From positions 1-64,000 of the IMG/VR virus record IMGVR_UViG_3300036773_000096: a DNA stretch of 64,000 nt. One strand, written 5' to 3'. Below are positions 43,486 through 62,400 of this stretch, in pieces. The position numbers and the translations under genes are program-made. Each line of letters opens with the position of its first letter. Position 1 is the first letter of the stretch. The notes beneath the pieces were generated by a model. The model was not told the DNA's origin. It saw only the letters and a program-made list of their open reading frames with translations, and did no database searches. Source of the stretch: a virus.

Positions 43486-44158
43486 TGCCCACAGCCATTG
43501 TCTGCGGGGTCGCGATCTTGTCACGGTTCGCGTCGTAGATGACCGGCCACCGGTCACCGCGCCCATAGAGCTTCTGCGCGATCCCCCACAGCGTGTCCCC
43601 CGGTGCCGTCGTGTACGACTTCGCCGGGGCGCTGCTCTGCGGTGCCGCGACCGGCGCGGGAGCCACGGGCGAGGACACCGGGCCGGTGTTCGGGGACGTC
43701 TCACTGGCACGGGTCATCGTGATGTCAGCGGTCGCTCGGATGATCAGGTTCGTGTCCGGGTGGCGCAGCACACTGGACACCGCCAGCGCCGTGATCCGCC
43801 ACAGCCCGGCCTCCTGATCGGAGTAGCGCATCATGACCCGCATCCGGGACTTCGCGACCAGCTTCAGCGTGTTGATGTAGCCCGACTGGTCGGCGTAGAA
43901 GTCGTCCGGGTCGCCGATGTTGATGGTGAATCGCATCGTGTCGAGCTTGTCGGCCTTGCGCACCAGTAGCGGCACGAGGCCCACTCTCGAGACTTGCACC
44001 CAATCCTGCTCCCACACGCCGTACTCGATGACCGGCGGCGCGAAACGGAACGTGAAGCTCGCCGACCCATCCTCAGTGAGCAGGTAGGCGCGCTGGCCGG
44101 GCACAGCGGTGAAGCTCACCCCGCTCACCGGGTCGCGGATGACCGCCAGCGCCATCAC
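43463..44158 (-). CDS. tube-initiator-like protein with C-terminal LysM domain
   Basis: YTTAPGDTLWGIAQKLYG...IYDANR...LVIP; follows tape measure. Confidence 0.88.
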   Translation of the reverse strand: MMALAVIRDPVSGVSFTAVPGQRAYLLTEDGSASFTFRFAPPVIEYGVWEQDWVQVSRVGLVPLLVRKADKLDTMRFTINIGDPDDFYADQSGYINTLKLVAKSRMRVMMRYSDQEAGLWRITALAVSSVLRHPDTNLIIRATADITMTRASETSPNTGPVSSPVAPAPVAAPQSSAPAKSYTTAPGDTLWGIAQKLYGRGDRWPVIYDANRDKIATPQTMAVGITLVIPP

Positions 44159-46701
44159 GGCCTCCTGGGTGAGCTGTAGCGGTATCGGTCGGACAGCCCG
44201 GCGAGACGGTCAGGTGAGCGCACCGGGGGCGACTGGTCGGGTGGCCGGCGCGCGCTGGCCAGCACGGCGGCGGCCAGATCGTTGATGGCCTCGACCACTT
44301 CCCTCGACCCGGTGTCGACATTGACCGACACGTGCGGGGAGCCCGGTGCGGCGCTGCCCCGGCCCAGCAGTGCCCCGTAGCCGGGCACTGCCCCGGCTAC
44401 CGCGTCGGCGACCGATGTGGGGAGCCGGTCGGCGAGCATCGGGAACTTGCTCAGCGTGCCCAGGTTGGGCACGACGTAGCCGCCGCGTGGGAGGTCGGTG
44501 CGCAGCTCCGGCCCGTGGGTTCCGATCATGCCCAGGAACTGGCCACCCTTGATCAGGGCTTCGGGGCCTTGCTCGCCGACGATGGCGGTGCCGTACTCGA
44601 TCGTGCCGCCCTGGGCTAGCAGCGGCATCTTCGGCAGGCTGAAGTTGGTGCCCCCCACCAGTGGCACCCAGGAGGGTATGGAGATGGTGGGGATCAGGTT
44701 CCAGCCTTTGGCGATGAGGTTGTAGGCCCCCTTGATGATGTTCCACAGCTCCACGAACGGGGCGGCGGCGGCCTTGGCGATCCAGATGAACACCGCGACA
44801 ACGTCGTTGCCGACGGCCTTGACCCCGTCGCGGAACCACGCGAACTTGTTCCACATATAGATGAAGGCCAGCACCAGCAGCATGATCCCGATGATGATCA
44901 AGCCGATGGGGTTGGACGCGAACGCCGTGGCGATGGCCCGGCCGACGAACATGATCCCAGTGCCCATGGCCTCGAACAGCGGGACCACCCAGCGCATGAT
45001 GAACCCCAGGGCACCGATGGACCGCGACCACTCCATCAGTTTTTCGACCTTGGAGAACAGGCTCAGCACGCCGCCCACGGCCTTCGCGCCCGCGCCGAAC
45101 ACCGTGAACAGGGTCAAGGCCGTTCCGATGAGTAGGCCCAGGCCGGGCACGTGGGCGACTAAGAACACGATGCCCCCGGCGAGGATCGCGATCGCCTGAA
45201 TGATGATCGTCAGGCCACCCAGAGGGATCCTGCTCAGAGCCAGGGCGATCTGAGTGAACGCACTGACCAGCGCAGAACCGAACCCACCGGTACCGGCCCC
45301 GGACAGGTTGTGAAACAGCGCCCCCAGCGCCGGCAGTAGCTCCGTGCGGATCTGGGCGATCAGTGCCGCGACCTGCGGGTTGGTGCCGATCCCGCTGATG
45401 CCGTGCAACAGCGCCAGCAGGAGCAGTCCCGTCTCGCGCAGGATCGGCACGGAGTCGGTGAAGAACTTCGTGATCCGGGCGGCGCCTTGGGCTGACGTCG
45501 TCCAGGCCCGGAACTTCGCCGAAGCGGCCTCCATGCCGCCGCCGAGCTGGTCACGCGCGACCCCGCCCGCGATGGCGAAAATGTGGAACAGCCCGACGAG
45601 GAAGTTCTCCAGGATCCGGCCATCGGTTTTCATCTGATCCCAGGCCCGGCTCATGAACGCCTGGGCTTTGCCGGAGTCGGTCATGCGCTTTGACCACGCG
45701 TCGAGTTTCGTGGTCACGTTGTCCAGGCCGTGAGCCATCGACGTCGTCATGGGCAGCGCCGCGACCGCCAGGTTCAGCAGGGTCGTCAGCACGTGGCCTA
45801 GCGAGTTGCCCATCAGCCCCACCAGGGGGGTGACCCCAGCGAACAGGGTGCCGATCTGGCTGACCTGGCGCGTCCCGGAGACCATGTCGCCGACGTGGGC
45901 GACCGCGCCACCGAACGCACCGGACAGCCCCACCAGGCCGGTGCGCAGGGTGGGGATCATCCGGTCGTGGATCTCTTTGTCGAACGCCTGGATGCCCGGC
46001 ACCATCGCCTGGGTGATCACCGTGCGCATCGCGAGGAAGTCGTTGGTCAACGGACGCAGCAGTGCCCCGATATCCTTGCCGCTGATCTTCATCAGGGCCA
46101 TGCCGGCGGCAGCGAGGAACAACGCCGGCCCCAGCGCGCCCGCGACCCCCACCAGTGGCGCCATGTGGCCCACGGCCATCACCGCGCCGGCCCCCAGCGA
46201 CACCAGCATGCCGACGACGGCTTGACCGCCCGTGAGGATCGCGCCCCACTTGATCAGCATGATCATCGACTTCAGGCCGCCGGTCGCCTTGCTGGCCTTA
46301 TTCGCCGACTTCGCCCACGCCTCCAGCGTTGACACATGCTTCTTAGCGCCACCGGTCGAGGAGTTCTGGGCTCTGGTCGCGCTGTTGACCGAATTGGCGA
46401 GCTTGGTGTATCCCAGGCTGCCTGCTGCGGCCTTCGCCCCCGACGCGGCGGCAGCGTTCCCGGCCGCCTTGGCGGCGGGCACGAACTGACCCAGGGCGTT
46501 GCGGGCGCGCTGGGTGGAGTTCTTGGCCTTGTCCATCCCTTCGTCAAGCTCTTCACCGGACTTGATCCCGGCCTTGCCCAGGGAGCCCAGCGCGTGATCG
46601 GCCTCCTCCGCTGCGACCGTGGCCCGATCCAAGGCGTCGGTGATGTCGCCGGACATTGACGCCCTGATATGCACGTCATCGTCAGAGCCGGCCACAATCA
46701 C
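44155..46701 (-). CDS. tape measure protein
   Basis: 848 aa Ala/Gly-rich helical; NPIGLII..I; LAQGG..VGEQGPE; position. Confidence 0.9.
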   Translation of the reverse strand: MIVAGSDDDVHIRASMSGDITDALDRATVAAEEADHALGSLGKAGIKSGEELDEGMDKAKNSTQRARNALGQFVPAAKAAGNAAAASGAKAAAGSLGYTKLANSVNSATRAQNSSTGGAKKHVSTLEAWAKSANKASKATGGLKSMIMLIKWGAILTGGQAVVGMLVSLGAGAVMAVGHMAPLVGVAGALGPALFLAAAGMALMKISGKDIGALLRPLTNDFLAMRTVITQAMVPGIQAFDKEIHDRMIPTLRTGLVGLSGAFGGAVAHVGDMVSGTRQVSQIGTLFAGVTPLVGLMGNSLGHVLTTLLNLAVAALPMTTSMAHGLDNVTTKLDAWSKRMTDSGKAQAFMSRAWDQMKTDGRILENFLVGLFHIFAIAGGVARDQLGGGMEAASAKFRAWTTSAQGAARITKFFTDSVPILRETGLLLLALLHGISGIGTNPQVAALIAQIRTELLPALGALFHNLSGAGTGGFGSALVSAFTQIALALSRIPLGGLTIIIQAIAILAGGIVFLVAHVPGLGLLIGTALTLFTVFGAGAKAVGGVLSLFSKVEKLMEWSRSIGALGFIMRWVVPLFEAMGTGIMFVGRAIATAFASNPIGLIIIGIMLLVLAFIYMWNKFAWFRDGVKAVGNDVVAVFIWIAKAAAAPFVELWNIIKGAYNLIAKGWNLIPTISIPSWVPLVGGTNFSLPKMPLLAQGGTIEYGTAIVGEQGPEALIKGGQFLGMIGTHGPELRTDLPRGGYVVPNLGTLSKFPMLADRLPTSVADAVAGAVPGYGALLGRGSAAPGSPHVSVNVDTGSREVVEAINDLAAAVLASARRPPDQSPPVRSPDRLAGLSDRYRYSSPRRP

Positions 46702-48046: not shown

Positions 48047-49510
48047 TCAGAATCGCCGGGTCACGCCGACCTTGGTGACGGTGAGCGCGATCAACGCCCC
48101 CGTGGGGGACACCCGCACCGCGCACGTCGCCTGCACCATGTTCGCGCTGGCCACCTCACGGCTGGGGTCAGTGGTGATCGAGAAGCCGGGGTCGCGTTCG
48201 ATCGGGGTACCGCCCAGCGGGTCGGCGTCGATCCACGGATAGAGCCCGCCAGCGTCAGCCATTGGCAGCACGAGCCCCGTCAGGGCGCCCTCCACGCGGG
48301 CCAGCAGATGCCCGCGTGCGTCGATGGTGGAGAACACCATCGGATCCAGGGCCTGCTGGGAGGCGACGACGATGCGGTTGATGACGTCGATACCTGTGAG
48401 CAGCCGCCAGTTGGCGATGTCGGAAGACAGCGACCGCCAGCCGTAGAGCCGGACCCCACCGGACACCGGCAGGATCGGGGAGACCTTCGCGTCCTCTAAG
48501 GCGTTAGCGGTGGCGGAGTCGAAGATTTGATCGGGGGCCACCACCACGATCGACCGAGCGCGGTCACCCGCTGGGGCCTGCCACGGGCCGACGTCGCGGT
48601 GCGCCCGTGCCCGCACGGCCGCGATGTAGCCGTCGCACGGAATGGAGGACAGGCCGCCGAAGGCGTCGCGGGTCTGCACCCACGGGCCGAACAGTCCCGC
48701 GTACTCACTGTCATAGGACGCGGCCAGGGTGGCGAGCTGAGTGGAGGTCGACCCGCGCGCGGAGACCAGGATCGCGAGACGGTTGTTGGCTTTGGCGTGC
48801 GCGATCAGCCCGGTGTGGGTGGCGTCGCCACCACCGGGGATGGCGACGCACCCGTCGCCGTACTGGGGACCGAAGCGGGCCAGGGCGGCCACCAGGGAAG
48901 TGGCGTTGACCGAGCTGCGGTCATCGGTGCCCGCGCCCAGGGCGACCGGGCCGACGACGGCCGGGTTGTTGTTCGGTGCCACCGTGGCCGACGCGAGGTC
49001 GGTGACCGAGACCCACGAGCTGCCGGCGGTTTTGGTGACCGCGTCCTGGGGGGAGGACAGGTTGGCGTAACGCTCCACTTCGATCCCGAGATAAAGGACC
49101 GAGAGGATGAACGTGTTGGGCACCGTGCCCGCGAGGATCTGCACCGTGACGTCTGAGGACCACGAGCCGGGGCCCTTGGCGGTCACCTGCAACGTCGACA
49201 GTGGTGTTCCGGCCCGGTCGACCAGCGGCGTCCCCAGGGAGCCCTGGGTGGCGGCCGGGCCGACGACGCGGGCGACGTAGGCTTCCCCGCCGCCTTCAGC
49301 GAAGAACATCGCGATGTCGTCATAAAGGTTGCCGTAGGACGGTCGGGTGCCGAAGGTGGCCTCGAACTGTGCCAGCGACGTCACGCGTGCCACATCGGTG
49401 GCCGACCCGCGCGCGGCCAGCCCGACTGCGAAGTAGGACGCGCTCGGTACGGGGATGGGGAACAGTGAGCCGGCCGCAGCGGTGCGGGTGACGGTGACAC
49501 CTACAGCCAT
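48047..49510 (-). CDS. tail sheath protein
   Basis: YFAVGLAARG, FFAEGGGEAYVARV, GPWQAPAG, RLYGWRSL. Confidence 0.93.
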   Translation of the reverse strand: MAVGVTVTRTAAAGSLFPIPVPSASYFAVGLAARGSATDVARVTSLAQFEATFGTRPSYGNLYDDIAMFFAEGGGEAYVARVVGPAATQGSLGTPLVDRAGTPLSTLQVTAKGPGSWSSDVTVQILAGTVPNTFILSVLYLGIEVERYANLSSPQDAVTKTAGSSWVSVTDLASATVAPNNNPAVVGPVALGAGTDDRSSVNATSLVAALARFGPQYGDGCVAIPGGGDATHTGLIAHAKANNRLAILVSARGSTSTQLATLAASYDSEYAGLFGPWVQTRDAFGGLSSIPCDGYIAAVRARAHRDVGPWQAPAGDRARSIVVVAPDQIFDSATANALEDAKVSPILPVSGGVRLYGWRSLSSDIANWRLLTGIDVINRIVVASQQALDPMVFSTIDARGHLLARVEGALTGLVLPMADAGGLYPWIDADPLGGTPIERDPGFSITTDPSREVASANMVQATCAVRVSPTGALIALTVTKVGVTRRF

Positions 49511-50403: not shown

Positions 50404-50600
50404 AGCTGGTCGCCCACCCGTGGCACCAGCTCAGTCCAGTCCGCGACAGCCTCGTCGTCGAGCACCTTCACGGCCAGGCCCCCCGCCTGGACGTCGAGGT
50501 AGGTCAGCACCCAGTGCCCGTGACCGTTGAAGTCCTGGGCGAAACGCTGAGCCACGTAGCCATCCGGGCTTACTCGCGCCGCGACTTCCGTGAGGTTCAT
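50400..50600 (-). CDS. small hypothetical protein
   Basis: 4-nt overlaps at both ends. Confidence 0.6.
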   Translation of the reverse strand: MNLTEVAARVSPDGYVAQRFAQDFNGHGHWVLTYLDVQAGGLAVKVLDDEAVADWTELVPRVGDQL

Positions 50601-51082
50601 CGCTCCAGCTTCCTGGAACCGCCCGTGTTGGGCACCCCGTCGATGATCCACGTGAGCACCGTCGAACTCGCCGCGCCCTCAGCGGCGACCTGATGGGCGT
50701 TGATCAGACGGCGGGCCTTCATCCGCCGGGTACCGGACTGATGGAAGTGCGCGTAGGAGATGTCAGTACCGGCCTCGACCTCGTGAGCCCGGATGTGCTC
50801 CACGCCCAGCGGACGCCGCGTCAGCTCGCTGCGCATCGACGTCGTGCGCACCAGCGGCTCATTGAGGAACCCTTGGCCGCGCTTCTGGGCGACCGTCGAC
50901 GGCATCAGCGGTGCCCACGGGGTGCGCCAACGCGCCCCGCGCGAGTTGAACTGCTCAACGTTGGTCACCGCCCACCAGGTCAGGAACTCCTCCCACGCCG
51001 GGGACAGCTCCGTCGACCGTGCCCGCATCTGCTCAAGGTTGCGGCGCACCCGGTCCAGGCCCTCGACACTGACCCGGATCAT
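50597..51082 (-). CDS. virion morphogenesis / tail completion protein (Mu gpG, P2 gpS-like)
   Basis: WAPLMPST...PLVRT...GTDISYAHFHQSGTRRMKARRLI. Confidence 0.85.
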   Translation of the reverse strand: MIRVSVEGLDRVRRNLEQMRARSTELSPAWEEFLTWWAVTNVEQFNSRGARWRTPWAPLMPSTVAQKRGQGFLNEPLVRTTSMRSELTRRPLGVEHIRAHEVEAGTDISYAHFHQSGTRRMKARRLINAHQVAAEGAASSTVLTWIIDGVPNTGGSRKLER

Positions 51083-51681
51083 CCGCTGGTCCGTAGCCGC
51101 CGCCGGGACCGCAACATCAGCAGCTCGTCGTCAGTCCAGCCCTCTTTGATCGCGGGTGGCTCTTTCGCGTCCAGCGCGCGGGCGACAACCGTGTCGTCGT
51201 GACGGTTGAGCATCGTGGCACCCACCTTGTCCACGATCGCTCCCACGATGTCACCGACCGGCCCCCAGCCGGCCATGTAGTGCATCGTGATCCGCTGGTC
51301 GTAGTCCTGGGGGACGGTCAGGGAGAACGGCCGCGAGGTGTAGGTCAGGGTGTCGGGGGCGACGGGAGCGCCGATCCAGCCCTCCTCCCGCCACGAGTAC
51401 GGCGCGGGCAGCGCCATCCCGTAGGTGGCCGACCCGCCGGCACTGACCCCGTCGATGTCGATGACCCGAAACACTGGGGCACTGGTCGCCACGACACCCG
51501 AGCGGCGCAGGATCGGCACTACCTCGGTGCGCTCCACGGGGTCAATGGGGCAGCGCATCCACCGCTCCAAGTCCGCTTGGCGGCGCGCGAGTAGCAGCGC
51601 GCACGCAGCGGTCTGGTGAGCGCTCCACGGGGGGTTTGACAGGTAGTCGTTGACCTGCCCAACAGTGACAACCAGTGCCAC
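51079..51681 (-). CDS. head-to-tail adaptor
   Basis: VTVGQVNDYL...ITMHYMAGW. Confidence 0.75.
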   Translation of the reverse strand: MALVVTVGQVNDYLSNPPWSAHQTAACALLLARRQADLERWMRCPIDPVERTEVVPILRRSGVVATSAPVFRVIDIDGVSAGGSATYGMALPAPYSWREEGWIGAPVAPDTLTYTSRPFSLTVPQDYDQRITMHYMAGWGPVGDIVGAIVDKVGATMLNRHDDTVVARALDAKEPPAIKEGWTDDELLMLRSRRRLRTSG

Positions 51682-52170
51682 TTAGACCCCGACGCCCGCG
51701 CCCAGTGACTGGGTTCCGCGCGCCTCACTGAGCAGGCCACCGCCGGGCTCGTTCACGGGCATCGCCGTCTCCGGGGTGTTGGGGGCGTCATCACCGCCGT
51801 AGCGGGCGTAGACGCTGCGCAGCACGTGCTGGCCACGATTCCACAGCTTGCGACACGACGGCTGCTGACAGCCTTCGGGGTACCAGGAGTAGTAGGCGTC
51901 GTCCTTGGCCGGCTCGTAGTCCGCTGAGGTGGTGTGCCCCGCGATCCATGAACCGGTCAGGGTGTGCGCCGGGGACGCCGGGTCCGCTGAGACCTCAAGT
52001 TGGCGTGACTGCGCGGCCGAGCCGGCGGGCGTGGACACGGGCGCTGATTCGGGGGCCGTGTCGCCCCCGCCGAGCACCGCTTGGGGGCGGGACGGCTTCG
52101 GGGTGCTCGCGCGACGGTTGCGCACCGCTGCGGCAGCGTCGTTGCGGGAATCTCTGTGGTCATCGGCCAT
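51682..52170 (-). CDS. hypothetical protein
   Basis: ORF abuts adaptor start. Confidence 0.6.
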   Translation of the reverse strand: MADDHRDSRNDAAAAVRNRRASTPKPSRPQAVLGGGDTAPESAPVSTPAGSAAQSRQLEVSADPASPAHTLTGSWIAGHTTSADYEPAKDDAYYSWYPEGCQQPSCRKLWNRGQHVLRSVYARYGGDDAPNTPETAMPVNEPGGGLLSEARGTQSLGAGVGV

Positions 52171-53159
52171 GCGCCGAACGGTAACGCCATGGCCATGGCG
52201 CCACCGTCACGCCACGCGGTGACCATCCGGGCGACCAGCGGGTAACCGCCCGGCGCGGCGACGAACGCCCCCGCGATGAGTAGCGGGTACATGACGCCGA
52301 TCTCGAAGGCCTTGCCGGTTTTGAAAGCCAGCCACTTCGGGAGGTGCACGAACTCCCAGCGCTTACCGGTGCGGGGGTGCTTGAACGGGAACAGCCAGCA
52401 GATGCCGCACTCGGTGACCGAGTCGCCGAGCATGTGGGTGAGGCACCCCAGGGTCGCTGCCGCGCCGAGCAGGCCCGTCCAGTGGGTGTCCAGAGCCCCG
52501 CCAGTGGATTGCGTGAGGTAGAACGCGAGGCCCATGCACACCGCTGCCGTGCCGGAGCGACCTGATGCGCGCAGGTACTTCCCTGGCAGCGGCACCCACT
52601 TTGAGCGCATCGCTTTCACGGCAACGTGCTTCAGGGCGAGCCCGATGTTGTGGTAGATGACAATGCCCAGGCGCCGGGGGGCGCTTTTGCCTTTCAGTCG
52701 GCTGGCGGACAGCTGCCGGTCGGGGTTGGTGGGCATGTAGAGCCCGCGCGCGGCCCAGTGCAGGGAGACGCCGAGCACGATGGGGGTGCCCCAGTGCGGC
52801 CAGACGGCGCAGATCACGGCCACCAGGGCACCCATGAACGCGGCACCGGGCCAGGTGTGGGTGGCGCCCCGGTGGATGACGGGCCTTTTGGGGTCGTCGG
52901 CTTCAGACCGGGTGGCGTAGTAGATGACCGCGCACAGGGTGACGACGAGGTGGTGCAGCGCGATGGTCAGCGCGCCCAGCGACGTGGTCACGGTGGATTT
53001 GCGCGTGTCACAGTCGGGCCAGTTGGCCCAGCCGGCGACGATCACCGCGACGATGTGCGGGATACCCCACGCGAGGTTGATGGTCGTGCACAGCTCAAAG
53101 AACAGGCAGGCGCCGTAGCCGGCGGTGGCACCCGAAATCGAGTGCCCCGTGGACATCAC
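51957..53159 (-). CDS. YdjM-like membrane metal-dependent hydrolase (C-terminal about 70 aa overlap next gene)
   Basis: STGH, WPDCDT, HRGATHT, THMLGDSVT; multiple TM segments. Confidence 0.85.
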   Translation of the reverse strand: MMSTGHSISGATAGYGACLFFELCTTINLAWGIPHIVAVIVAGWANWPDCDTRKSTVTTSLGALTIALHHLVVTLCAVIYYATRSEADDPKRPVIHRGATHTWPGAAFMGALVAVICAVWPHWGTPIVLGVSLHWAARGLYMPTNPDRQLSASRLKGKSAPRRLGIVIYHNIGLALKHVAVKAMRSKWVPLPGKYLRASGRSGTAAVCMGLAFYLTQSTGGALDTHWTGLLGAAATLGCLTHMLGDSVTECGICWLFPFKHPRTGKRWEFVHLPKWLAFKTGKAFEIGVMYPLLIAGAFVAAPGGYPLVARMVTAWRDGGAMAMALPFGAWPMTTEIPATTLPQRCATVARAPRSRPAPKRCSAGATRPPNQRPCPRPPARPRSHANLRSQRTRRPRRTP

Positions 53160-53439: not shown

Positions 53440-53601
53440 ATGACCGACTGCACAGATCTACGCGACATCATGGCCGTGCTGCCCCCGCAACGGATCTACA
53501 TGGAACTGCGACCCGATCAGGCGCTCGCCGCGATCCGCGCCGACTACGGCCTCGGACCCGGCACACCCATCCTCAGCAGTGAGCGCCCCGCGCAGCTCTA
53601 G
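53440..53601 (+). CDS. possible small protein (53 aa, MTDCTDLRDI...)
   Basis: Read by hand; no clear RBS. Confidence 0.3.
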   Translation: MTDCTDLRDIMAVLPPQRIYMELRPDQALAAIRADYGLGPGTPILSSERPAQL

Positions 53602-54176
53602 AGACCGACCCGCAGCGGCACCCAGGCGACCCGGATAGTCACCAGCGCCTCCTGCGGCGGGCAGTCCTGGACGGCTGGGGCGGTCGGCGCGGGCTCCACC
53701 GGGGCCGGCGGGGTCAGTGCGGGCGGCGGCGCGGGACGCGGCGGTGCGACTGACTGGCGCACCAGCGGGGGCAGGGGATGTGGCCGGGGCAGCGGTACCG
53801 GCGTCACCCGATGGGGAGGTGTCGCCCTGGCAGGGAGGGCTACTGGCGCCGGGGGTGCGACTACTACAGGGGCAGGCGCTGCGGCTGGCGGGCCGACCTC
53901 GACGCACAGCACACCCGAGAGCACCTTCGGTGGCTGGCACGGTGGCGTGACCGGCACTACACGCGGCGGGCCGCCCAGTCCCGGCGGGGGAGGCGCGGCC
54001 AGCCCATCACCGGGAGTGAAGATGGGCTCACACAGCACGTTGCCGCCCACAATCTGCCCCACCGGGCACGGGTCGGCGGTGGCCGCAGCGGGGACCGCGA
54101 CCATCGCCGCGACCGTGCCCACAGAGGCCAGCGCAGCGAAGTATGGGATGGCGGGGCGACGGCGACGGTGCTTCAT
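53598..54176 (-). CDS. secreted Pro-rich protein (candidate second sortase-associated protein)
   Basis: Basic N-term, hydrophobic signal, ATA-DP cleavage; Cys residues; TGATG coupling to sortase. Confidence 0.7.
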   Translation of the reverse strand: MKHRRRRPAIPYFAALASVGTVAAMVAVPAAATADPCPVGQIVGGNVLCEPIFTPGDGLAAPPPPGLGGPPRVVPVTPPCQPPKVLSGVLCVEVGPPAAAPAPVVVAPPAPVALPARATPPHRVTPVPLPRPHPLPPLVRQSVAPPRPAPPPALTPPAPVEPAPTAPAVQDCPPQEALVTIRVAWVPLRVGL

Positions 54177-54805
54177 CAGGCGGGCCTCGCAAAGACGATG
54201 GTGTTGTCGGCGTAGCCGAACTGTCCCCCGATGAACTGACCGGAGCAAGTGATCAGACGCAGCTCGGAGGTCGGGGTGTAGCCGTAAACCTCCTGAGTGG
54301 GGAACTGCGGCTTGGGCTTCTGTAGGAGCCGGTAGACGGTGTAATTGAGCACCACCCCATCCACGCGGGTCACCGAGACCTTGTCGCCGACGCGCAGCTC
54401 GTGGAGGTGAAAGAAAATCCCCTCCTGGTGCGCACCGTGTACGACCGACCCGTCAACATGCCCGATGATGATCGACGGACCGGCCTGACCGGGCACCACC
54501 CCGGACTTACACGACGTCGCGGGGAGCACATCGGTCTGGCAGTAGTAGGCGGCCTGCTGGGGGTGCGTGACGTCGGGCTCGGCCAGCTCTTTGGTCTTCG
54601 GGTTGATGCCGATCGGTATCAGCGACGAGTGCGCCCCGATCTGGGGAATGTCGATGCTCGCCGGCTGCACCGGGGGCGGTGCCGCCATGTTGTGAACCGG
54701 CGGGGCGCTCGGCGGTGGGGTGTCCCCGCTACCGGCCGCTGAGCAGCCGGTAGCGAGGGCGAGCACTGCTAACGCAGACAGCAGTGCGACGCGACCACGG
54801 ATCAA
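54176..54805 (-). CDS. class F sortase, lipoprotein
   Basis: Lipobox-like LATGC; PASIDIP.I, PG..G.SIIIGHVD, LRLITCSG, YADNTIVFA. Confidence 0.92.
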   Translation of the reverse strand: MIRGRVALLSALAVLALATGCSAAGSGDTPPPSAPPVHNMAAPPPVQPASIDIPQIGAHSSLIPIGINPKTKELAEPDVTHPQQAAYYCQTDVLPATSCKSGVVPGQAGPSIIIGHVDGSVVHGAHQEGIFFHLHELRVGDKVSVTRVDGVVLNYTVYRLLQKPKPQFPTQEVYGYTPTSELRLITCSGQFIGGQFGYADNTIVFARPA

Positions 54806-55515
54806 GAGATCTGGTCGCGCAGGGCACCGCCACCAGTGGGGGCGGGACCCGACGGAACTTCGCCGACCTGCGGGTTACTGGGGGTCACGACGATGGGGCC
54901 GTTGTTGATGACCGTCGGAGGGGCTTCCGGGGTGTCGGTCACGGGCGCCGGCTGGTCGGGGGTGTCCACGGGCGGAGCGGGCACCGGGGCCGGGGTGGGG
55001 GCGGCGCACTCGCTGCCGTGGATCCGGTCGGTCAGCAGGGCGATCTTCGCGTCGAGCAGGCGACCGGACTCCCGTGCCTCATCGAGGTGCTTCCGGGCCG
55101 TGTTGGCCTTGGCCTGTGCGAGGTCGAGCCGATTCTTGGCCAGGTTCACGTCGCCCTGGGTGGCGGTGGGAGGAGTCGCGTGGAATCCCGCGAGGGTGGA
55201 GTCGTAGGCGTTCTGTGCAGTGCGCAGGGCTTCGCGGGCGCTGCGGTCCTCATTCTGGGCATCCTGAACGCTGCGGTGGGAGTGGCCGGCGTCGATCCGG
55301 ACCCGCACCAGGAGCAGCCGGTCCTGATCACAGTTGCCGCCGTTGCCGATGCCAACGTTGACGCGGATGGCGTCACGGTTGCCGGCGTCGCAGTTGACGT
55401 GGTTCTCGCACAGCGGGCGGGGACCGGGGTCGGCGGAAGCGGGGACGGCGATCGCCAGGGGGAGCAGGAACGCCCCCGCAGTGACGGCAGTCAGGATGGT
55501 CTTGCGTGCGCGCAC
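54802..55515 (-). CDS. secreted coiled-coil protein with C-terminal VPSGPAPTGGG sorting-like motif
   Basis: Sec signal ASA-DP; heptads; Pro-rich linker; GAGGAG RBS; coupled to sortase. Confidence 0.8.
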   Translation of the reverse strand: MRARKTILTAVTAGAFLLPLAIAVPASADPGPRPLCENHVNCDAGNRDAIRVNVGIGNGGNCDQDRLLLVRVRIDAGHSHRSVQDAQNEDRSAREALRTAQNAYDSTLAGFHATPPTATQGDVNLAKNRLDLAQAKANTARKHLDEARESGRLLDAKIALLTDRIHGSECAAPTPAPVPAPPVDTPDQPAPVTDTPEAPPTVINNGPIVVTPSNPQVGEVPSGPAPTGGGALRDQIS

Positions 55516-55645
55516 GTGATCTCCTCTTGCGTGGGGCCGGAACGGGTGGTGCTCCGGTAGCGAGCGGACATTACCGCGCGTGCACGGACGGTCACGCTCT
55601 TAGGGTCCTCTCAGGAACCCCGCGTGTTGCGGGGCTGCGCAACTA

Positions 55646-55668
55646 TGGTAGGGTTGGATTCGTTCCGA
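55646..55668 (+). promoter_or_regulatory. conserved element copy 9 (TGGTAGGGT-N7-GTTCCGA)
   Basis: Same spacing; drives + strand island. Confidence 0.75.
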
Positions 55669-55696
55669 CCAACCGCACGAGGGAGACCCACCCACA

Positions 55697-56406
55697 TGGA
55701 CGCCAAAGTCCTCGCACGCATCCGTGGCCTGCTCGCCAAGGCCGAATCAACCGAGTTCCCCGCCGAAGCCGAATCCTGCACCGCCAAAGCACTCGAAATG
55801 ATGACCGCCCACGGTGTCGAACAAGCCCACCTCGACGCCGTCAGCGGCCGGCGCCCCAGCGCCACCTCCCTTCGCATCGACTTCGACAGCCCCTACAGCC
55901 TGGAGAAAGCCACCCTGCTGGGATGCGTCACCGAACCACTGGGCTGCAAGATCGCCATCTTTGGCACCCACCGCACCAGCGACTACGCCACCGTCGTAGG
56001 CATGCCCACCGACCTCGAACTCGTCGAAATGCTCTACACGAGCCTGCTCCTGCAAGGCACCACCCAGGTCGTCCGCCAGCGCCCCTGGGATGTCATGGAG
56101 TCCATCGCCGCCTACCGGCGCACCTGGTGGCTGGGCTTCGCCTACATCATCGAGAAGCGTCTCCAAGCCGCGTACGCCAAGGCCGTGACCGAACACGTCA
56201 GCGACGGGCCGTCCACCGCGCTCGTGCTCCGGGACCGCGCCGCACTGGTCGCCGACACCTTCGATGACCTGTTTCCCAAGCTGGGCAAGCCACATAAGCG
56301 CAACCTCACCGGCAGCGGTGGCGGAGCTGGCGCCATCGCCGGACGCAACGCCGACATCGGCACCGGCCGCCGCGTGGCCCGCACCCGGCAGGCGGCGATC
56401 CGATGA
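55697..56406 (+). CDS. DUF2786 domain protein
   Basis: VLARIRGLLAKAESTEFPAEAE..TAKA.EMM..HG; start at ATG near 55697 after GAGGGAG. Confidence 0.88.
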
Positions 56407-56702
56407 AACCCAGCGAGGGATGCGTGTGGAACGCCGTTGACCGGGAATGGCTGCTCACGGTCGTTGATGAAGCGCCGCTGGTCTTCGGCGCGGTGGCCGC
56501 GCCTCCGCATGGGGATTCGCAGCGGGCCCCGGAACGCTACGACGGTGCCTACGCGACGCACGGTCCCGATCGGTCCCGCGCATCAGTGCAGCCCTACACC
56601 CGCGAGTGCATGGTCGACTTCGATTGCGGCGGTTGCGCGTGCGGGTTCGTGATGGCGCCGTGCAATCACTGCATGGAGCACTGGGCGGAGGATCAGTCGT
56701 GA
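56403..56702 (+). CDS. hypothetical protein, Cys-rich C-terminus
   Basis: ATGA coupling; CGGCACGF..APCNHC. Confidence 0.65.
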   Translation: MKPSEGCVWNAVDREWLLTVVDEAPLVFGAVAAPPHGDSQRAPERYDGAYATHGPDRSRASVQPYTRECMVDFDCGGCACGFVMAPCNHCMEHWAEDQS

Positions 56703-56890
56703 ACGGACCCCGTGAGCCCTTCGAGGTGGAGACCGCGAAAATCCTGGGTGGCATCACAGCTGGCTGCCTGGGGGTCACGCTGGTCGTCTACACGGTGGCC
56801 CCGTTGGTGGTGACGGCCGTCCCCGCGCTCGTCACGGCGATCTTCCTGATCTTTTTTCTCTGGTCGCTATTCCGATTCACGATCGGCTGA
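56699..56890 (+). CDS. small two-TM membrane protein
   Basis: Hydrophobic; GTGA coupling. Confidence 0.6.
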   Translation: MNGPREPFEVETAKILGGITAGCLGVTLVVYTVAPLVVTAVPALVTAIFLIFFLWSLFRFTIG

Positions 56891-56896
56891 CCCGCC

Positions 56897-57106
56897 ATGA
56901 TCAGTCACTCCCGCAACGTGGTCGAATCAGCCGGCGGACTAGTCCTGACCCTCGACGACACCTACGGCAAGACCTGGCAGCAAATCATCACCGAACTCGA
57001 CTCCCTCGCCGCCGACGGGGAACAGGTCTACGTCGAGCCCGCCGCGCTCGCCGGACTCATCCGGGCACTACTCGCCTACGGAGCGCTGCCGGCCAGCGTC
57101 GGCTGA
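56897..57106 (+). CDS. hypothetical protein
   Basis: Follows in operon. Confidence 0.6.
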   Translation: MISHSRNVVESAGGLVLTLDDTYGKTWQQIITELDSLAADGEQVYVEPAALAGLIRALLAYGALPASVG

Positions 57107-57376
57107 CCCCGCGTCGGAGGTCGAGTTGTTGTCCTCTGCCCGAGAACCCTGCCAGGCAGAGAAATGCCCCACGGCGTTGGCGTAGCACGAGATCAGGCCC
57201 ACCCACAGCACGGAGTCGTGCCACCACAGCACCGTCGGGATGATCGCTAAGAACCACACCCCCGTAGCCGTGGAATGAAACCTCCGCCACGTCTTCGGGT
57301 TAGCCCACGCATCCTTGACCCGCTCGAAGCGGGGCCGACATTCCGAGCCCGGCCCCGCTCCGAACGTTGCCATCAC
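57068..57376 (-). CDS. small membrane protein
   Basis: Two TM segments, ISCYANAVGHFSAWQGSRAE; coupled to decoration gene. Confidence 0.65.
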   Translation of the reverse strand: MMATFGAGPGSECRPRFERVKDAWANPKTWRRFHSTATGVWFLAIIPTVLWWHDSVLWVGLISCYANAVGHFSAWQGSRAEDNNSTSDAGSADAGRQRSVGE

Positions 57377-57849
57377 ACGTAGACGTAGCTGGCGGCCAGC
57401 GTCAAAGTCCCGCTGTCGTCGGTCACCGTGGTGGCCACGGTGGCGGCGGAATGCGCACCGGAGACACCCGTGATGGTGGTGTTGTTGACCACAGTGAAGC
57501 TGGTCAACGCCACGCCACCCAGGGCGGCACCCGACGCACCGTCGAAGTTGACGCCCTTGATGGTCACCGGGGTGCCACCAGCGGCAGCGCCCGTAGCCGG
57601 ACTGATCGACAGAATCGACGCGGCCGGGTACAGCGCGACGATGTCGGCCTTGCGCACCTGCTGGCCGGCCTTGTACTTGATCCGGCGCTCCCCGTCGAAG
57701 GTCTTGAAATTGTCCTTATACGGGGCGTAGTTGAACGATTCGTAGATGTCCTCGTTGACGATGCAATCGGTCGCGGGAACATCGGTGGTCTTGGCCTGCA
57801 ACGCCGTGAGGCTCAGCACAGTGGTGCCATCGGCGGCCAGAATAGCCAT
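57373..57849 (-). CDS. capsid decoration-like protein with IPT/TIG (Ig-like) domain
   Basis: ILSISPATGAAAGGTPVTIKGVNF...FTVVNNTTIT; directly after MCP. Confidence 0.8.
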   Translation of the reverse strand: MAILAADGTTVLSLTALQAKTTDVPATDCIVNEDIYESFNYAPYKDNFKTFDGERRIKYKAGQQVRKADIVALYPAASILSISPATGAAAGGTPVTIKGVNFDGASGAALGGVALTSFTVVNNTTITGVSGAHSAATVATTVTDDSGTLTLAASYVYV

Positions 57850-57881: not shown

Positions 57882-59240
57882 TCAGGGAGTGATCGCGGCG
57901 GCCAGGTTGACCTTGACCATGGCAGCGGGGCGGTAGACGGCCAAACCCAGCCGCTCTTCGGCCAGGACCACGATGGCGTTACGAATGAAGAAGTCCGCGT
58001 GCTGGTCAGCGGTGCGGATGTTGGACTGCATGCGGTCAAACACCTGCGCGCCCAACCCGAAAGCGCCGATCAGAGCGGTGCCCTCAGGACACGCCGGAGT
58101 GGCGACAACAGGCATCTGCCACAACCGCTTCTCGGCACCGGAAGTGACCGACCCCGCGACCAAATAGCGGCCCTGGGTGTCCTTGGTCAATTCCATGCGC
58201 TCCCAGTCGTATGGGTGCACAACTACGCCGGTCGGGTCATACTGCGCCAACATGACGCGCGTGGCGCCCCGGCGAATAGCATCGACGTAGGTCTCGTTAG
58301 TCGGTGCGTGATAGCCGCCGGAAGGGAACAATTGGATACCCGGCGTGTTGAAAATGCCCAGCAGGTTCTGGCCCGTGCCGTCACCTAGAAGCAGCTGCTG
58401 GTCTTCGACCAACCGCAGGCCATAAAGCAGCCGGGTGTCGATGATTCCGCGCAACTGCGGCTCGTCATCAAGAACGTTGCGCGACGCGGGCACCCAGTGG
58501 GCGAGAGTCCGGATCGGCGTGGTCTTGATGTTGAAGTGGATCTGCGACTTCGGCTTCAGGCCGAAGTTGTCGTTGGGCGGAGAGACCCCGTCACGCTCGG
58601 GAATCATCGCCGCCGCGTTGTCGCCCGCGTCGACGAACCCCAGCTCCTCAATGAACTCGATCATCACCGAGTTGGTGTTCATCTGCGGGAACAGGTCACG
58701 CACCCGCCAGGTGAGCATCGGAGCTGACACCATCGGCGCCCGCTGCACCGTGCCGAAACCAGGGTGGACAACAGTGCCGATGCTGCCGGAATGAACATCC
58801 TTGTACTGCACGCCGTTGGGGGAGGTAATCTCCTCGCCCTCGATGGCGAACGCCTTGTCCATGAAACCGGAGTCACGGTGGCCCTTGAAAGCCTCCGACT
58901 CGACGAAACGCTGCCCCAGTGACTTATACTCGGGCATCGCCGTCACGCCGATACCGGCCGGGGATCCACCCATCGCCACGGGCGTGCCGGCGGGGGCGTC
59001 GAGCCACTCGTCCAGGAGGCCCTTGCGCTCCAGGGCGGTGACGATGCCGTGAGTCTCCTCAGCCTTGGCCAGCAGGGCCTTGAACTCGGTGAGGGCTTCG
59101 GGCTTGACGTGCATGTTGCCTTCGCCGTCGAGCCAACCTGACTTGGTGATCTCGTCCATTTGTGCGTTGATGGACTTCACTTCGACCTTGCCACGATCAA
59201 TGAGGTCTTTGTCGTGGCGGTCGAGAGTAGGTGCGGTCAC
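57882..59240 (-). CDS. major capsid protein, HK97 fold
   Basis: KSLGQRFVES, VRDLF, TLAHWVPASRNVLDD, EDQQLLLGDG, FIRNAIVVLAEERLGLAVYRP. Confidence 0.95.
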   Translation of the reverse strand: MTAPTLDRHDKDLIDRGKVEVKSINAQMDEITKSGWLDGEGNMHVKPEALTEFKALLAKAEETHGIVTALERKGLLDEWLDAPAGTPVAMGGSPAGIGVTAMPEYKSLGQRFVESEAFKGHRDSGFMDKAFAIEGEEITSPNGVQYKDVHSGSIGTVVHPGFGTVQRAPMVSAPMLTWRVRDLFPQMNTNSVMIEFIEELGFVDAGDNAAAMIPERDGVSPPNDNFGLKPKSQIHFNIKTTPIRTLAHWVPASRNVLDDEPQLRGIIDTRLLYGLRLVEDQQLLLGDGTGQNLLGIFNTPGIQLFPSGGYHAPTNETYVDAIRRGATRVMLAQYDPTGVVVHPYDWERMELTKDTQGRYLVAGSVTSGAEKRLWQMPVVATPACPEGTALIGAFGLGAQVFDRMQSNIRTADQHADFFIRNAIVVLAEERLGLAVYRPAAMVKVNLAAAITP

Positions 59241-59485: not shown

Positions 59486-62400
59486 CTAGCCCACCGTGGC
59501 GGTCGCCCGGCCCTGCAATGCACCCGTGCCGCACGACGGGCACGGCGCCGTGCCGACCATCCCGTAGGCGGGGATCATGATGTCGTTGCCGCACTCCGGG
59601 CACGGGGCAACCTTTACGAGCATCCCGGATGCGTCCATGACGTAGCGGTAGCCCTCGATGACGGTGTCCTCGTAGGACTCCACATCTTCCGGCCCGTCGG
59701 TGTCGGGGCCGTCAGCGTCGGTGTCCGACGGTTTGGGGCCCTGCTGCGCGCGCAGCTTGAACTCGACACCCAGCCGAGCGGCGCGCAGCATCGTCAATTC
59801 ATCGACCAGCGACCCGGCCGTCTTCTCCTCGACCACGAGGTGACGCTTCCACACCGCGTCGATTTTCGCCCGCTCCGCGTCCGCCTCGGCCTGTCGCGCG
59901 GCCTCTTTCGCCTTGCGGATCCGCTCGCGCTCCTCATAGGGCTTGGAGTAGTCCGGGGCCTCGTAGCCGCCGCTGTAGCCGGGCTGAATGCGACGGTTGA
60001 TCGCCCAGTGCCCCTCGGCCCACGGGAAGTCCAGCGCCGCGAGGTCGTCGAGCAGGGCGTGAACGTTGTCGATGGCCCCGCGCGCATCATCGGGTCGGGG
60101 GATCAGCTCCCCGTCCGACGTCATGAACACTTCCAACTTGTTCCCGCTGCCCAGGGCGGCCAGAGTGCCATCCGGGGACGCGGCGGCATCCGGGGACGCG
60201 GCGGGGATGGAGAACCGCTTCAGGCGGTCCTTTTCCGGCCCGGCGCTGCCCCGGCCCATGAGGGCGACCTTCGCGCTTGCCTTCGTCCGTGCCGTGGCTA
60301 GACCCTTAGTCGCCTCATCCTGCTGCGGGCCGGCGTCGCCTTTCATGCCGGCGGCCTCCATGGCGGCCTGCAACCGTGCTGACTCGGCCGTGGCTTCCTT
60401 CAGCGCGGCGGCGTGAGCGAACGGCACCCCGATGCGGGCCTTCATCGTCGCGGCTTCGCTGCGCAGCGACGCGGCCCGGTCAACCTGAAGGTCGCGGCGG
60501 AACTCCAGGTTGTTCAGCGAGTTCGCCAGGGTGGTGTTGATGCCCGCGCCGAGCTTCTCGACGTCGCTGGGGCTGATGTGCACGATGTTGCCGGGCAGGC
60601 CCTCCCAGGACAGTGTCATCCCAAAGCGCTTCGTGCCGAGCTTGTCGTAGTGGACCTCCGGCTGACCCAGCAGCACGTGACCGCCGATGGTGCCCAGCGG
60701 CTTGGGCTTCGACCCGGCGTAGCCGTAGCGGCGTTCCCGGATCTGATCCTGCATCGCCGACTTCAGCAGGGTCGCCCCGTCGGCGCGGGTCCGGGCGGTG
60801 ATGCCGGCGACGTTGATGGAGTACTTGTCACCGCTGATGTCGGTGCGCTTGGCGATCGCCGCGTTGTAGGCGGCGGCGTCGGCGTCGGCCTGCTCCGCGT
60901 TGGCCCCGTAGGAGACCACGTCGCGCCGTAGGTTGGTTTGGGTACGGGCGTGCTGGCGCTCCAGGCGGGTGAGCTTGCCGACCGTGACGTCGACTTTCGC
61001 CTTGTCCATGAGTAGCGGGTTGCCGGTGGCCAGGGCCTTGACTTCGGCGTAGGACAGGGCGGTGTCGCCGACGTCTTCGATCTCTCGGACGTCGCCCATC
61101 TTGCCGCGCATGATCTGGTCGATGAACTTCTTTTTGCGCTCCAGGGTCTGCCACATATAGGCGTCGAAGCTGCCCTCGGTGACGTAGCGGAAGATCGCGA
61201 CCTCTTTGTTGGTGTTGCCCTGGCGCATGATTCGGCCGTCGCGCTGCTCCACATCGCTGGGGCGCCACGGGGCGTCGAGGTGGTGCAGCGCGACCGCGCG
61301 GCGCTGCACGTTGGTGCCGACACCCATTTTTTCCGTCGACCCCACCAGCACGGAGACCTGACCGTTGCGGGCGGCGGCGAACAGCTCCGCTTTCTCCCGG
61401 TCGTTTTTGGCCTCGTGCATGAACCGGATCGACTTCGGGTCCATGCCACGGGCGGCCAGCTCGTCACGCAGCTTCTGGTAGGCGTTCATGCCGGCACCGC
61501 CGGGTGTGCCCATGTCGCAGAACACGATCTGCATGCCGCCCGGCGGCGGGTCGTCGCCACCAGCGGGGTCGTTGATGTCTTTCGGGACGGGCCGGTCTTT
61601 GTTCGCATCCCAGATCTTGTAGATGTTGTCGGCCGCCTCTTCGATCTTGCCCGGCTGGTGCTTCTCTCCCACCAGCGCCATGCTCAGGGCGGCCTTGCGA
61701 CCATCACCGGAGATCTTGAGCATGTTGTCGTCTTCGGGCTTGACCTTGCCGTTGCGGACATCCTCGGCGCGCTGGCCCAACTCCTGGACGTAAGCCGACA
61801 ACTCCGGCGACGCCGGCACGATGACGTTCTGCACCCCACCTGTGGCCAGGTCCGGGGTCTTCAGGTTCAGGTCATCGGCCATCTTCACATCAGCGAACAG
61901 GTGGAACAATCGCAGCAACTCAGGAACGTTGCGGAACTTCGCGAAGCGCGTGGTCTGGCGGAACCCCGTACCCTCAGGCTTGAGTTCCATCTCATCAACG
62001 GTCTTGCCGAACGTCGCCGCCCACTGGTCGAATGAGTGAATACCGGCCTCGCGCAACGTCTCAGGGTCGAGGAACCGTTGCATGATGTATGCCTGGGTGA
62101 CCGTGTTGCGGATCGGGGTGCCCGTGGCGAACGTTCCCACCCGGCCCGACTTATTGTTCGCCCGCAGGTGCTCCATTTTCATGTGCAGGTCCGACGCCAT
62201 GTCCGATCCGGTCGCCCCCGCGCCCTGGATGTTGGAGATGGTGCGCAGGTTGGAGTACATATGCGCCTCGTCGACACACAGGTAGTCGATGCCGGTCTCC
62301 TCCCAGCTCACCCCGGCATCCTTAACCTTGTCCAGCTTCGCCTTCAGGGCCTCCTCAGCCTTGATCAGCGAGTTCTCCATTTTCTTAACGGTCTTCTCTT

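Follow-up and report, generated by a model that had tools for sequence, protein, structure and literature searches.

The virus record IMGVR_UViG_3300036773_000096 (IMG/VR) is 120,179 bp long, with direct terminal repeats and a CheckV completeness of 100%; its first 64,000 nucleotides (nt), referred to here as the window, contain the structural genes of a contractile-tailed phage and, lying among them, a small cassette that encodes a sortase. The cassette is made up of three overlapping minus-strand genes (55515-53598) located between the capsid/decoration genes and the neck genes: geneA, whose product is the predicted substrate, the sortase gene itself, and geneC, which encodes a further secreted protein.

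54802-55515, minus strand: geneA, 237 amino acids (aa), GTG start at 55515 with a GAGGAG ribosome-binding site 7 nt upstream
54176-54805, minus strand: sortase gene, 209 aa, TTG start within the TGA stop of geneA (4-nt overlap, TTGA)
53598-54176, minus strand: geneC, 192 aa, ATG start with a 1-nt overlap with the sortase stop (TGATG)

A preliminary description, made from the sequence alone, had proposed three translationally coupled genes at this site, and the open reading frames (ORFs) are as it described them, with overlaps of 4 nt and 1 nt; the 216-aa ORF that appears in the program-made list is an upstream extension of the 192-aa geneC. The 4-nt start/stop overlap is not peculiar to the window and recurs across phage and cellular loci.

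The middle gene is a real sortase, a lipoprotein enzyme of the class F type. Its product matches the Pfam sortase family (PF04203, peptidase C60) over residues 98-208 with 53.1 bits against a cut-off of 26.6, as confirmed by a search of the genome. By far the top family in NCBIfam is class_F_sortase (NF033748; E value 3.3e-38, model positions 7-153 of 155), in which the protein scores 130.8 bits and does not reach the curated cut-off of 166; the class F label of the preliminary description is therefore upheld as the best family, at a score below the family's own threshold. The N-terminus is a lipoprotein signal with the lipobox LATGC21, which is kept in relatives. The three residues picked out beforehand, His116 (GHVD), Cys187 (LRLITC) and Asn201 (YADN), are invariant in 73 relatives, as is Arg183. 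An extra loop with Cys89 and Cys99 is specific to the clade of the window and absent from cellular sequences, and this insert may form a disulfide loop.

Structural prediction points in the same direction. The AlphaFold model of the sortase, built on the 73 relatives, has a predicted local distance difference test score (pLDDT) of 89.1 and a predicted template modelling score of 0.78; when it was entered into Foldseek, 114 matches in the PDB were returned at an E value of at most 0.001, the top ones being sortases of classes A, C, D and E with a probability of 1.0, and the matches to solved sortases had E values of about 1e-8 and template modelling scores of about 0.5. Sequence searches of the PDB were less informative: a 19-sequence profile gave nothing at an E value of at most 0.001, and a 73-sequence profile gave partial alignments to sortases only, which stopped short of the Arg position. 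Asn201 lies 14 residues past Cys187 in the last strand (197-208) and there occupies the place of the catalytic Arg in other sortases, so that the Arg typical of the superfamily is replaced by Asn in this enzyme; because the PDB alignments stopped short, the equivalence of Asn201 to Arg197 of SrtA rests on spacing and strand position.

The geneA product is organized as a signal peptide (approximately residues 1-28, PASA/DP at the predicted cleavage point), a Cys-rich head, a helical hairpin, a Pro-rich stalk and a C-terminal tag.

55018-55332, minus strand: helical hairpin of geneA, residues 62-166 (AlphaFold)
54823-54870, minus strand: C-terminal tag of geneA, QVGEVPSGPAPTGGGA, residues 216-231, predicted scissile bond Thr227-Gly228

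The AlphaFold model of the whole protein is of low confidence (pLDDT 56), and its only confident part is the two helices (62-111 and 120-166), with pLDDT above 80 over approximately residues 80-140 and the remainder disordered. There are four Cys residues, of which Cys62 is invariant and Cys170 nearly so; because these two flank the hairpin, a disulfide staple at its base is possible. The family is very narrow, having only 6 relatives in 5.8 billion proteins, all from this lineage and none cellular; nothing was found for geneA in Pfam or PHROGs, and nothing significant in NCBIfam.

The C-terminal region is what ties this protein to the sortase. The protein ends in QVGEVPSGPAPTGGGALRDQIS; within this ending the tag core VPSGPAPTGGG spans residues 220-230, the peptide covering Pro221, Thr227 and Gly228 is QVGEVPSGPAPTGGGAL, and with the predicted cut marked by a slash the tag reads QVGEVPSGPAPT/GGG. 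Within the geneA family Pro221, Gly223 and Gly228 are invariant, and Gln216, Gly229, Gly230 and Ala231 are nearly so. A G-[VPA]-x-[T/A]-G core thus follows P-x-G at the C-terminus of a secreted protein encoded beside a class F-type sortase. The preliminary description was correct in seeing a sorting-like motif here, as the same tag is generally found beside class F sortases; taken as a canonical LPXTG-type cell-wall sorting signal, the motif does not hold, since geneA has only GGALRDQIS (9 residues) after Thr227-Gly228, with neither a hydrophobic segment nor a basic tail.

The generality of the tag was seen in a scan of IMG/VR, in which 26 other viral contigs with a related sortase were found. 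In 18/26 of these, an ORF that ends at or overlaps the sortase start carries the tag family PxG..x[T/A]GxG; these ORFs have a signal peptide and end in PxG[GA][VPA]x[T/A]GxG plus at most 12 residues. The count comes from reading the C-termini by eye, because automatic tail classification mis-sorted viral loci (for example, those with Ala-for-Thr tags). As for the remaining viral loci, the tail is longer but of a non-membrane type in four, and in L024 it comprises a full membrane segment followed by basic residues; L025, near-identical to L024, is cut off upstream of its sortase, and a tagged neighbour was not seen in L004, where the frames are broken, or in L021. Within the viral set, L019, L022 and L027 exhibit a third tail type, in which [AT]GDGSC is followed by approximately 20-25 residues with a basic FRR- or HWHF-type end and no membrane segment.

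What precedes the tag varies widely: among unrelated viral passengers are a helical region that includes an Excalibur domain, a beta-rich domain and an acidic tract, and their endings include GGVDTGGGPA, GGVETGGGPA and KGVDTGDGSLA. When two phage substrate groups were compared by hhalign, only the last 18 columns aligned (probability 97.7). In bacterial genomes a tail-less tagged neighbour on the same strand was present in 50/79 cellular loci, mostly from Pseudonocardiaceae; examples are VPAGAPETGDGSLA and APKGGVETGFGGTAR, and VPAGAPETGDG reads in the same register as the geneA tag. Across all fetched DNA the tag regular expression matched 74/2615 ORF C-termini, and approximately 66/74 of these lie beside a same-strand sortase. 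A variable passenger joined to a constant C-terminal tag beside a sortase, often with a 4-nt overlap, is the pattern expected of a sorting signal. Among the cellular substrates, that of L053 is a "choice-of-anchor P" family protein, and in L041, L076, L080, L081, L083 and L087 two or three tagged proteins flank one class F sortase, which recalls pilus loci.

The core motif is already known to curators in its tailed form, as the NCBIfam model NF058571 ("GVDTG sorting domain", GVDTG_CTERM) describes a G-[VP]-x-T-G core near the C-terminus beside class F sortases. That model covers 44 positions and spans tag, membrane segment and basic tail, whereas geneA of the window stops 9 residues past the TG. 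The tail-less form, which is dominant in phages and in the nearest cellular loci, scores below the threshold of the model: the tag of the cellular neighbour L076 reaches 19.2 bits over positions 2-14 only, and even the full signal of the tailed viral L024 reaches 17.6 bits, both below the cut-off of 29.

The pairing of the sortase with the geneA tail was also addressed by complex prediction, using the sortase domain and the C-terminal 42 residues of geneA. The runs gave a median score of 0.38, compared with 0.03 for the best control, and agreed in at least 70% of contacts; the pLDDT of the partner was at least 50. The mark applied was reached by 58/80 solved complexes and 2/110 mismatched pairs; scores of at most 0.60 were held by only 7/80 solved complexes and by both mismatches, so a result in this range is more often wrong unless the pairing is likely beforehand. 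The modelled complex lends weak support to the pairing. Taking the tag, its distribution and the coupling of the genes together, we consider it quite likely that geneA is the substrate of the sortase.

It is also conceivable, if unlikely, that the sortase acts mainly on host proteins, re-routing GVDTG-tagged surface proteins or stripping a receptor as a protease, while geneA is co-expressed and not ligated. Host targets would exist, since Pseudonocardiaceae-type genomes encode many tagged proteins beside related sortases; the Asn in place of the catalytic Arg leaves the chemistry open, and geneA falls short of the NCBIfam tag model. Such a role would not account for the tag of the upstream gene being kept in 18/26 viral contigs though the passenger has been replaced, nor for the invariance of Pro221, Gly223 and Gly228 in the geneA family, and the 4-nt overlap fits a dedicated pair.

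In further comparing the two secreted proteins of the cassette, geneC differs from geneA in having no tag. Its product combines a signal peptide and two CPxGQ...LC loops with a long stretch rich in Pro and a short hydrophobic end; searches of Pfam, PHROG and NCBIfam assigned it to no family, and the protein atlas returned only sub-threshold hits (best 0.81). Seven relatives were found in total, none cellular; among the related phages, L002, L005 and L010 carry the gene, and L003 and L006 lack it. geneC is a real, selected, co-expressed and secreted accessory gene of the cassette, and it is not a shown substrate because it has no tag and is missing in some relatives. The "substrates" of the preliminary description, given in the plural, are accordingly reduced to one, as geneA is tagged while geneC is untagged and absent from two of the five relatives.

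The preliminary description also suggested that proteins might be cross-linked into polymers. The sortase could be imagined to polymerise geneA with itself, or to cross-link it with geneC, into fibres or a surface layer in the manner of a pilus and with no peptidoglycan anchoring. The loci L041, L076, L080 and L081, with their two or three tagged proteins around one sortase as in pilus loci, would fit such a scheme, and the closest solved folds include the class C sortases of pili. We regard it as very unlikely: geneA and geneC showed neither a pilin-type domain nor a conserved acceptor Lys motif, L005 has Arg in place of the only Lys within the conserved portion of geneC, and at most phage loci just one gene is tagged.

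The cassette is an inherited and selected part of its phage lineage. Five contigs from other metagenomes (L002, L003, L005, L006 and L010) share the order capsid, TIG, DUF2786, geneA, sortase, YdjM-like, neck and sheath, with identities of 98% down to 81% for the capsid and 96% down to 48% for the sortase. The ratio of nonsynonymous to synonymous substitution rates (dN/dS) between the window and L002 is 0.32 for geneA, 0.15 for the sortase and 0.18 for geneC, values that indicate purifying selection on each of them; the structural genes give 0.06-0.13. The preliminary description, which took the DNA for that of a phage, had stated in advance that misassembly of host DNA would overturn it; this is excluded because five contigs keep the cassette at the same position. 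That the cassette is functionless passenger host DNA, captured recently or joined by an assembly chimera, is barely credible: the sortase is nested among cellular sequences in the tree described below and the cassette interrupts a structural gene block, but five more contigs, drawn from other metagenomes and with capsids down to 81% identity, have it at the same place, its dN/dS values are 0.15-0.32, its GC content equals that of the genome, and no cellular relative exists for either geneA or geneC.

A quick tree of 104 catalytic domains places the viral sequences in approximately five clusters among cellular ones (5 label changes versus 23 when shuffled). The sortase of the window lies inside the NCBI-annotated Pseudonocardiaceae class F set, in a tree limited to class F whose deep branches are weak (Shimodaira-Hasegawa-like approximate likelihood ratio test values of 80-90). 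Its clade is nearest to Solihabitans and to L044, an 8.7-kb contig in a Pseudonocardiaceae metagenome-assembled genome, and the best identities to cellular sortases are 45-47% (Labedaea, Kutzneria and Amycolatopsis). On the L044 contig, labelled as cellular, there is also a gene for a baseplate-J-like protein; the contig may belong to a further phage or to a tail-like element, and it hints at the family of the host. The sortase module is best explained as being of cellular, Pseudonocardiaceae-type origin, which for the account as a whole we consider probable, and a Pseudonocardiaceae-like soil host is likely. The sequencing runs in which the sequence occurs are soil metagenomes only, and no RNA run is listed among them.

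The preliminary description had called for a search of phage databases for sortase cassettes, with a divided outcome: IMG/VR yielded the 26 contigs mentioned, and INPHARED none. In INPHARED (GenBank phages to August 2025) a DNA search with the 5-kb region gave no match, and neither did tblastn searches with three different viral sortases at E value limits of 1e-5 or 1e-3; that collection appears to hold no phage record with a relative.

The region upstream of geneA was compared in an alignment of six phages and contains the following features.

55516-55695, between the strands: divergent intergenic region separating geneA (minus) from the DUF2786 gene (plus), six-phage alignment
55568-55573, minus strand: -10-like hexamer TAATGT, 53 nt upstream of the geneA start
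55594-55615, minus strand: 22-nt box CCTGAGAGGACCCTAAGAGCGT, near-identical in four phages despite diverged flanks

The TAATGT hexamer noted beforehand near 55570 is read at 55573-55568 on the minus strand. A TAnnnT hexamer occupies the aligned position in 5/6 related phages, and both T columns are invariant; a scan for the sigma-70 consensus found no promoter, and a single terminator-like site was at chance level. TAATGT is thus a candidate promoter element, and a promoter dedicated to the cassette is probable. The 22-nt box may be an operator or a shared promoter element.

The wider setting is a contractile-tailed phage structural block on the minus strand, from approximately 25 kb to 64 kb, identified by family searches (Pfam, PHROG).

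57882-59240, minus strand: major capsid protein, family match
57373-57849, minus strand: TIG-domain protein (decoration gene), family match
53440-53601, plus strand: small convergent ORF of 53 aa, which closes the cassette after geneC
51957-53159, minus strand: YdjM-like membrane protein (PF04307, 61 bits; phrog_20744 "hydrolase")
50597-51082, minus strand: Neck1/tail-completion protein, family match
48047-49510, minus strand: tail sheath, family match
44155-46701, minus strand: tape measure, family match
30737-31687, minus strand: endolysin, family match, 22 kb from the cassette

The cassette had been placed between the decoration and head-tail adaptor genes. Its flanks are indeed phage genes, but the plus-strand genes at 55624-57106 also intervene, and because no family was matched by the supposed head-tail adaptor (51079-51681), that name is positional only. 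Bracketed by the divergent plus-strand group (55624-57106) and the convergent ORF (53440-53601), the cassette looks like a self-contained island within the structural block; the 53-aa ORF is kept on the opposite strand in L002 (85%), L003 (55%) and L005 (69%). The GC content of the window is even at 0.65-0.70, except for a richer stretch at 26-28 kb, and that of the cassette is the same as in the remainder of the genome. No tRNA genes were found within the 64-kb window.

Several neighbouring genes are of interest in their own right. The plus-strand block (55624-57106), which encodes a DUF2786 protein, a 99-aa Cys-rich protein and a 69-aa protein, lies inside the minus-strand structural module and is kept in the clade; as the DUF2786 domain begins at residue 28 of the listed ORF, an ATG near 55696 is the likely true start. 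A membrane hydrolase-like gene (YdjM-like, multi-pass, PF04307) amid head and neck genes is unusual. It is found downstream of the cassette in L002, L003, L005, L006 and L010, which is given as context and does not imply a link to the sortase; its ORF overlaps the next one (51682-52170) by 214 nt, and in L003 and L005 it is 336 aa long with no overlap. Directly upstream of the major capsid gene is a giant DarB-like protein (59486-63880, minus strand; the ORF stays open as far as position 64000, where the window ends) that has both a methyltransferase and a helicase region (phrog_10089, E value 3.5e-259); it is kept in L002, L003, L006 and L010 and, by analogy with phage P1, may be a capsid-packaged anti-restriction protein. 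A 1099-aa ORF (25590-28889, minus strand) covers the stretch at 26-28 kb, where a GC content of 0.75 and strong skews set it apart from the remaining window, and may encode a repetitive, Gly/Ala-rich tail fibre.

The gene map also bears on whether the cassette serves lysis. A wall-linked helical protein and geneC might act late to weaken or bridge the layers of the envelope, loosely as spanins do. A secreted pair of a coiled-coil protein and a Pro-rich, Cys-bearing protein recalls i- and o-spanins; the sortase pair lies 0.2-2 kb upstream of the endolysin in L007, L011, L014, L015 and L016, and in other phage groups it is beside holin-like small membrane proteins. In the window, however, the endolysin is 22 kb away, and in L013 the pair is between the terminase and portal genes, so its position varies as it does for accessory ("moron") genes. 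Moreover, geneC is missing in L003 and L006, no spanin family was matched in the PHROG and NCBIfam searches, and Pseudonocardiaceae, the likely hosts, are not known to possess an outer membrane. A lysis function is therefore improbable.

No tyrosine integrase, serine recombinase or resolvase was found anywhere in the complete 120-kb genome. Conversion of the lysogenic cell surface, one of the uses suggested earlier, is unlikely for this reason and was rejected as the principal explanation; the action of the cassette would fall within the infection cycle.

Wall anchoring of a phage protein can then be pictured as follows. geneA and the sortase would be made together, as their reading frames overlap by 4 nt, and both would be exported, the sortase being held as a lipoprotein on the outside of the membrane. 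The Cys187/His116 site would recognise the geneA tag VPSGPAPT/GGG and cut after Thr227, and geneA would be transferred to an amine acceptor, most likely a peptidoglycan precursor or cross-bridge, so that the infected cell would carry on its wall a disulfide-stapled helical hairpin raised on a Pro-rich stalk. The likeliest use would be an altered cell surface during lytic infection, which might, for instance, shut out superinfecting phage or keep progeny off spent cells; surface exclusion or progeny protection is the most economical purpose, more weakly inferred than the anchoring itself. Taken as a whole, a two-gene phage sortase module with one accessory gene that works by wall anchoring is a probable reading of the cassette, and any specific biological role, be it masking, exclusion or polymerisation, is tentative. 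A broader proposal, which must be regarded as doubtful, is that class F-type sortases of phages and cells use a so far undescribed, tail-less route, in which the lipoprotein sortase captures a fully secreted protein through its C-terminal PxG..x[T/A]GxG tag, and that virulent soil actinophages have repeatedly adopted this unit with their own helical cargo to coat the cell and exclude competitors.

A number of points weigh against wall anchoring by this pair. The sortase stays below the curated class F cut-off, and because Asn replaces the catalytic Arg of all characterised sortases, hydrolysis or another chemistry is conceivable. The tag is tail-less, with none of the usual hydrophobic segment and basic tail that hold a substrate in the membrane; its scissile Thr is Ala in L003, L005, L010 and one cellular group, and NF058571 gave no hit against geneA even at E values up to 10 (cut-off 29 bits). 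Sortases of this class F type have not yet been studied by experiment, the one characterised "class F" enzyme, that of P. acnes, uses LPXTG, and a quadruple knockout of class F sortases in Actinoplanes was without phenotype (PMC8225981, PMC13251363). Which acceptor is used, when the genes are expressed and what the phage gains are all matters of inference, and the absence of an integrase is no proof of a strictly lytic life style. Lastly, the nearest cultured-phage capsids are 42-45% identical and belong to Brevibacterium and Gordonia phages, which weakens the host assignment.

Of the known systems, the cellular class F loci of Actinomycetota (NF033748, IPR042001), above all those of Pseudonocardiaceae such as Amycolatopsis, Kutzneria and Lentzea, are closest. 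Class F gives the top family score, and identity to annotated members of the class is 39-47%; the His, Cys and Asn are invariant in both, and the adjacent secreted gene ends in PxG..xTGxG, often with the same 4-nt overlap. The sortase of the window differs in being virus-encoded, in scoring below the family cut-off and in its extra Cys89/Cys99 loop; the cellular passengers are beta-rich (e.g., choice-of-anchor P), whereas that of the window is a helical hairpin with no cellular relatives, and its tag takes the divergent form GPAPTGGG. Actinobacteria have class F sortases in abundance, and neither a physiological role nor a substrate rule is established for these enzymes (2021 review and 2026 mBio paper; PMC8225981, PMC13251363). 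The only biochemically characterised "class F" enzyme described in these two papers is SrtF of P. acnes (Cutibacterium; Di Girolamo et al. 2019), a housekeeping sortase which acts on LPXTG in canonical signals; it shares its class assignment in that literature with the enzyme studied here, and nothing in the window points to LPXTG.

Sortases in phages are no longer without precedent. The preliminary description took a complete enzyme-plus-substrate cassette to be apparently new for a phage. This is superseded by a preprint (bioRxiv 10.64898/2026.10.24.761521, October 2026) which reports that 24 huge phages of the gut carry sortase B together with canonical PXTG substrates, and which states that sortases were previously undocumented in viruses. 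As in the window, the sortase of those modules is directly downstream of a motif-bearing protein with a signal peptide, and display of phage proteins on the host wall is proposed. They belong, however, to class B with a His-Cys-Arg site, to Bacillota gut hosts and to genomes above 200 kb, and the PXTG signal of their substrates is complete, including the hydrophobic segment and the charged tail, while the cassette described here has a class F-like enzyme with Asn and a tail-less tag in a 120-kb soil actinobacterial phage. A further parallel is offered by the SEC10/PrgA-type surface exclusion proteins of enterococcal conjugative plasmids (TIGR04320), in which a long helical surface protein encoded by a mobile element and anchored by a sortase blocks redundant entry. 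Hits to TIGR04320 are weak (E values of 0.069 for geneA, 1.2 for the L003 cargo and 5.6 for the L007 cargo) and may reflect coiled-coil composition only; with geneA at 12.5 bits against a cut-off of 70, the likeness would be one of function and not of membership.

What the window adds is a complete, integrase-free, contractile-tailed lineage of 120 kb in which the cassette is fixed in the head-neck block, together with the divergent tag PAPTGGG (Ala for Thr in sister phages), the predicted disulfide-loop insert of the enzyme and the Pro/Cys-rich accessory gene. The phage copies are minimal systems consisting of one enzyme, one dedicated substrate and a 16-residue tag, in which both the signal and the acceptor can be tested directly. 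Should the tail-less tag prove functional, it would provide a new means of supplying a sortase with proteins and perhaps a new ligation tag for use in protein engineering. Covalent remodelling of the cell wall has so far been proposed only for gut huge phages with sortase B (bioRxiv 10.64898/2026.10.24.761521); if the present account is true, soil actinophages, including apparently non-integrating ones, would covalently remodel the wall of the infected cell as well.

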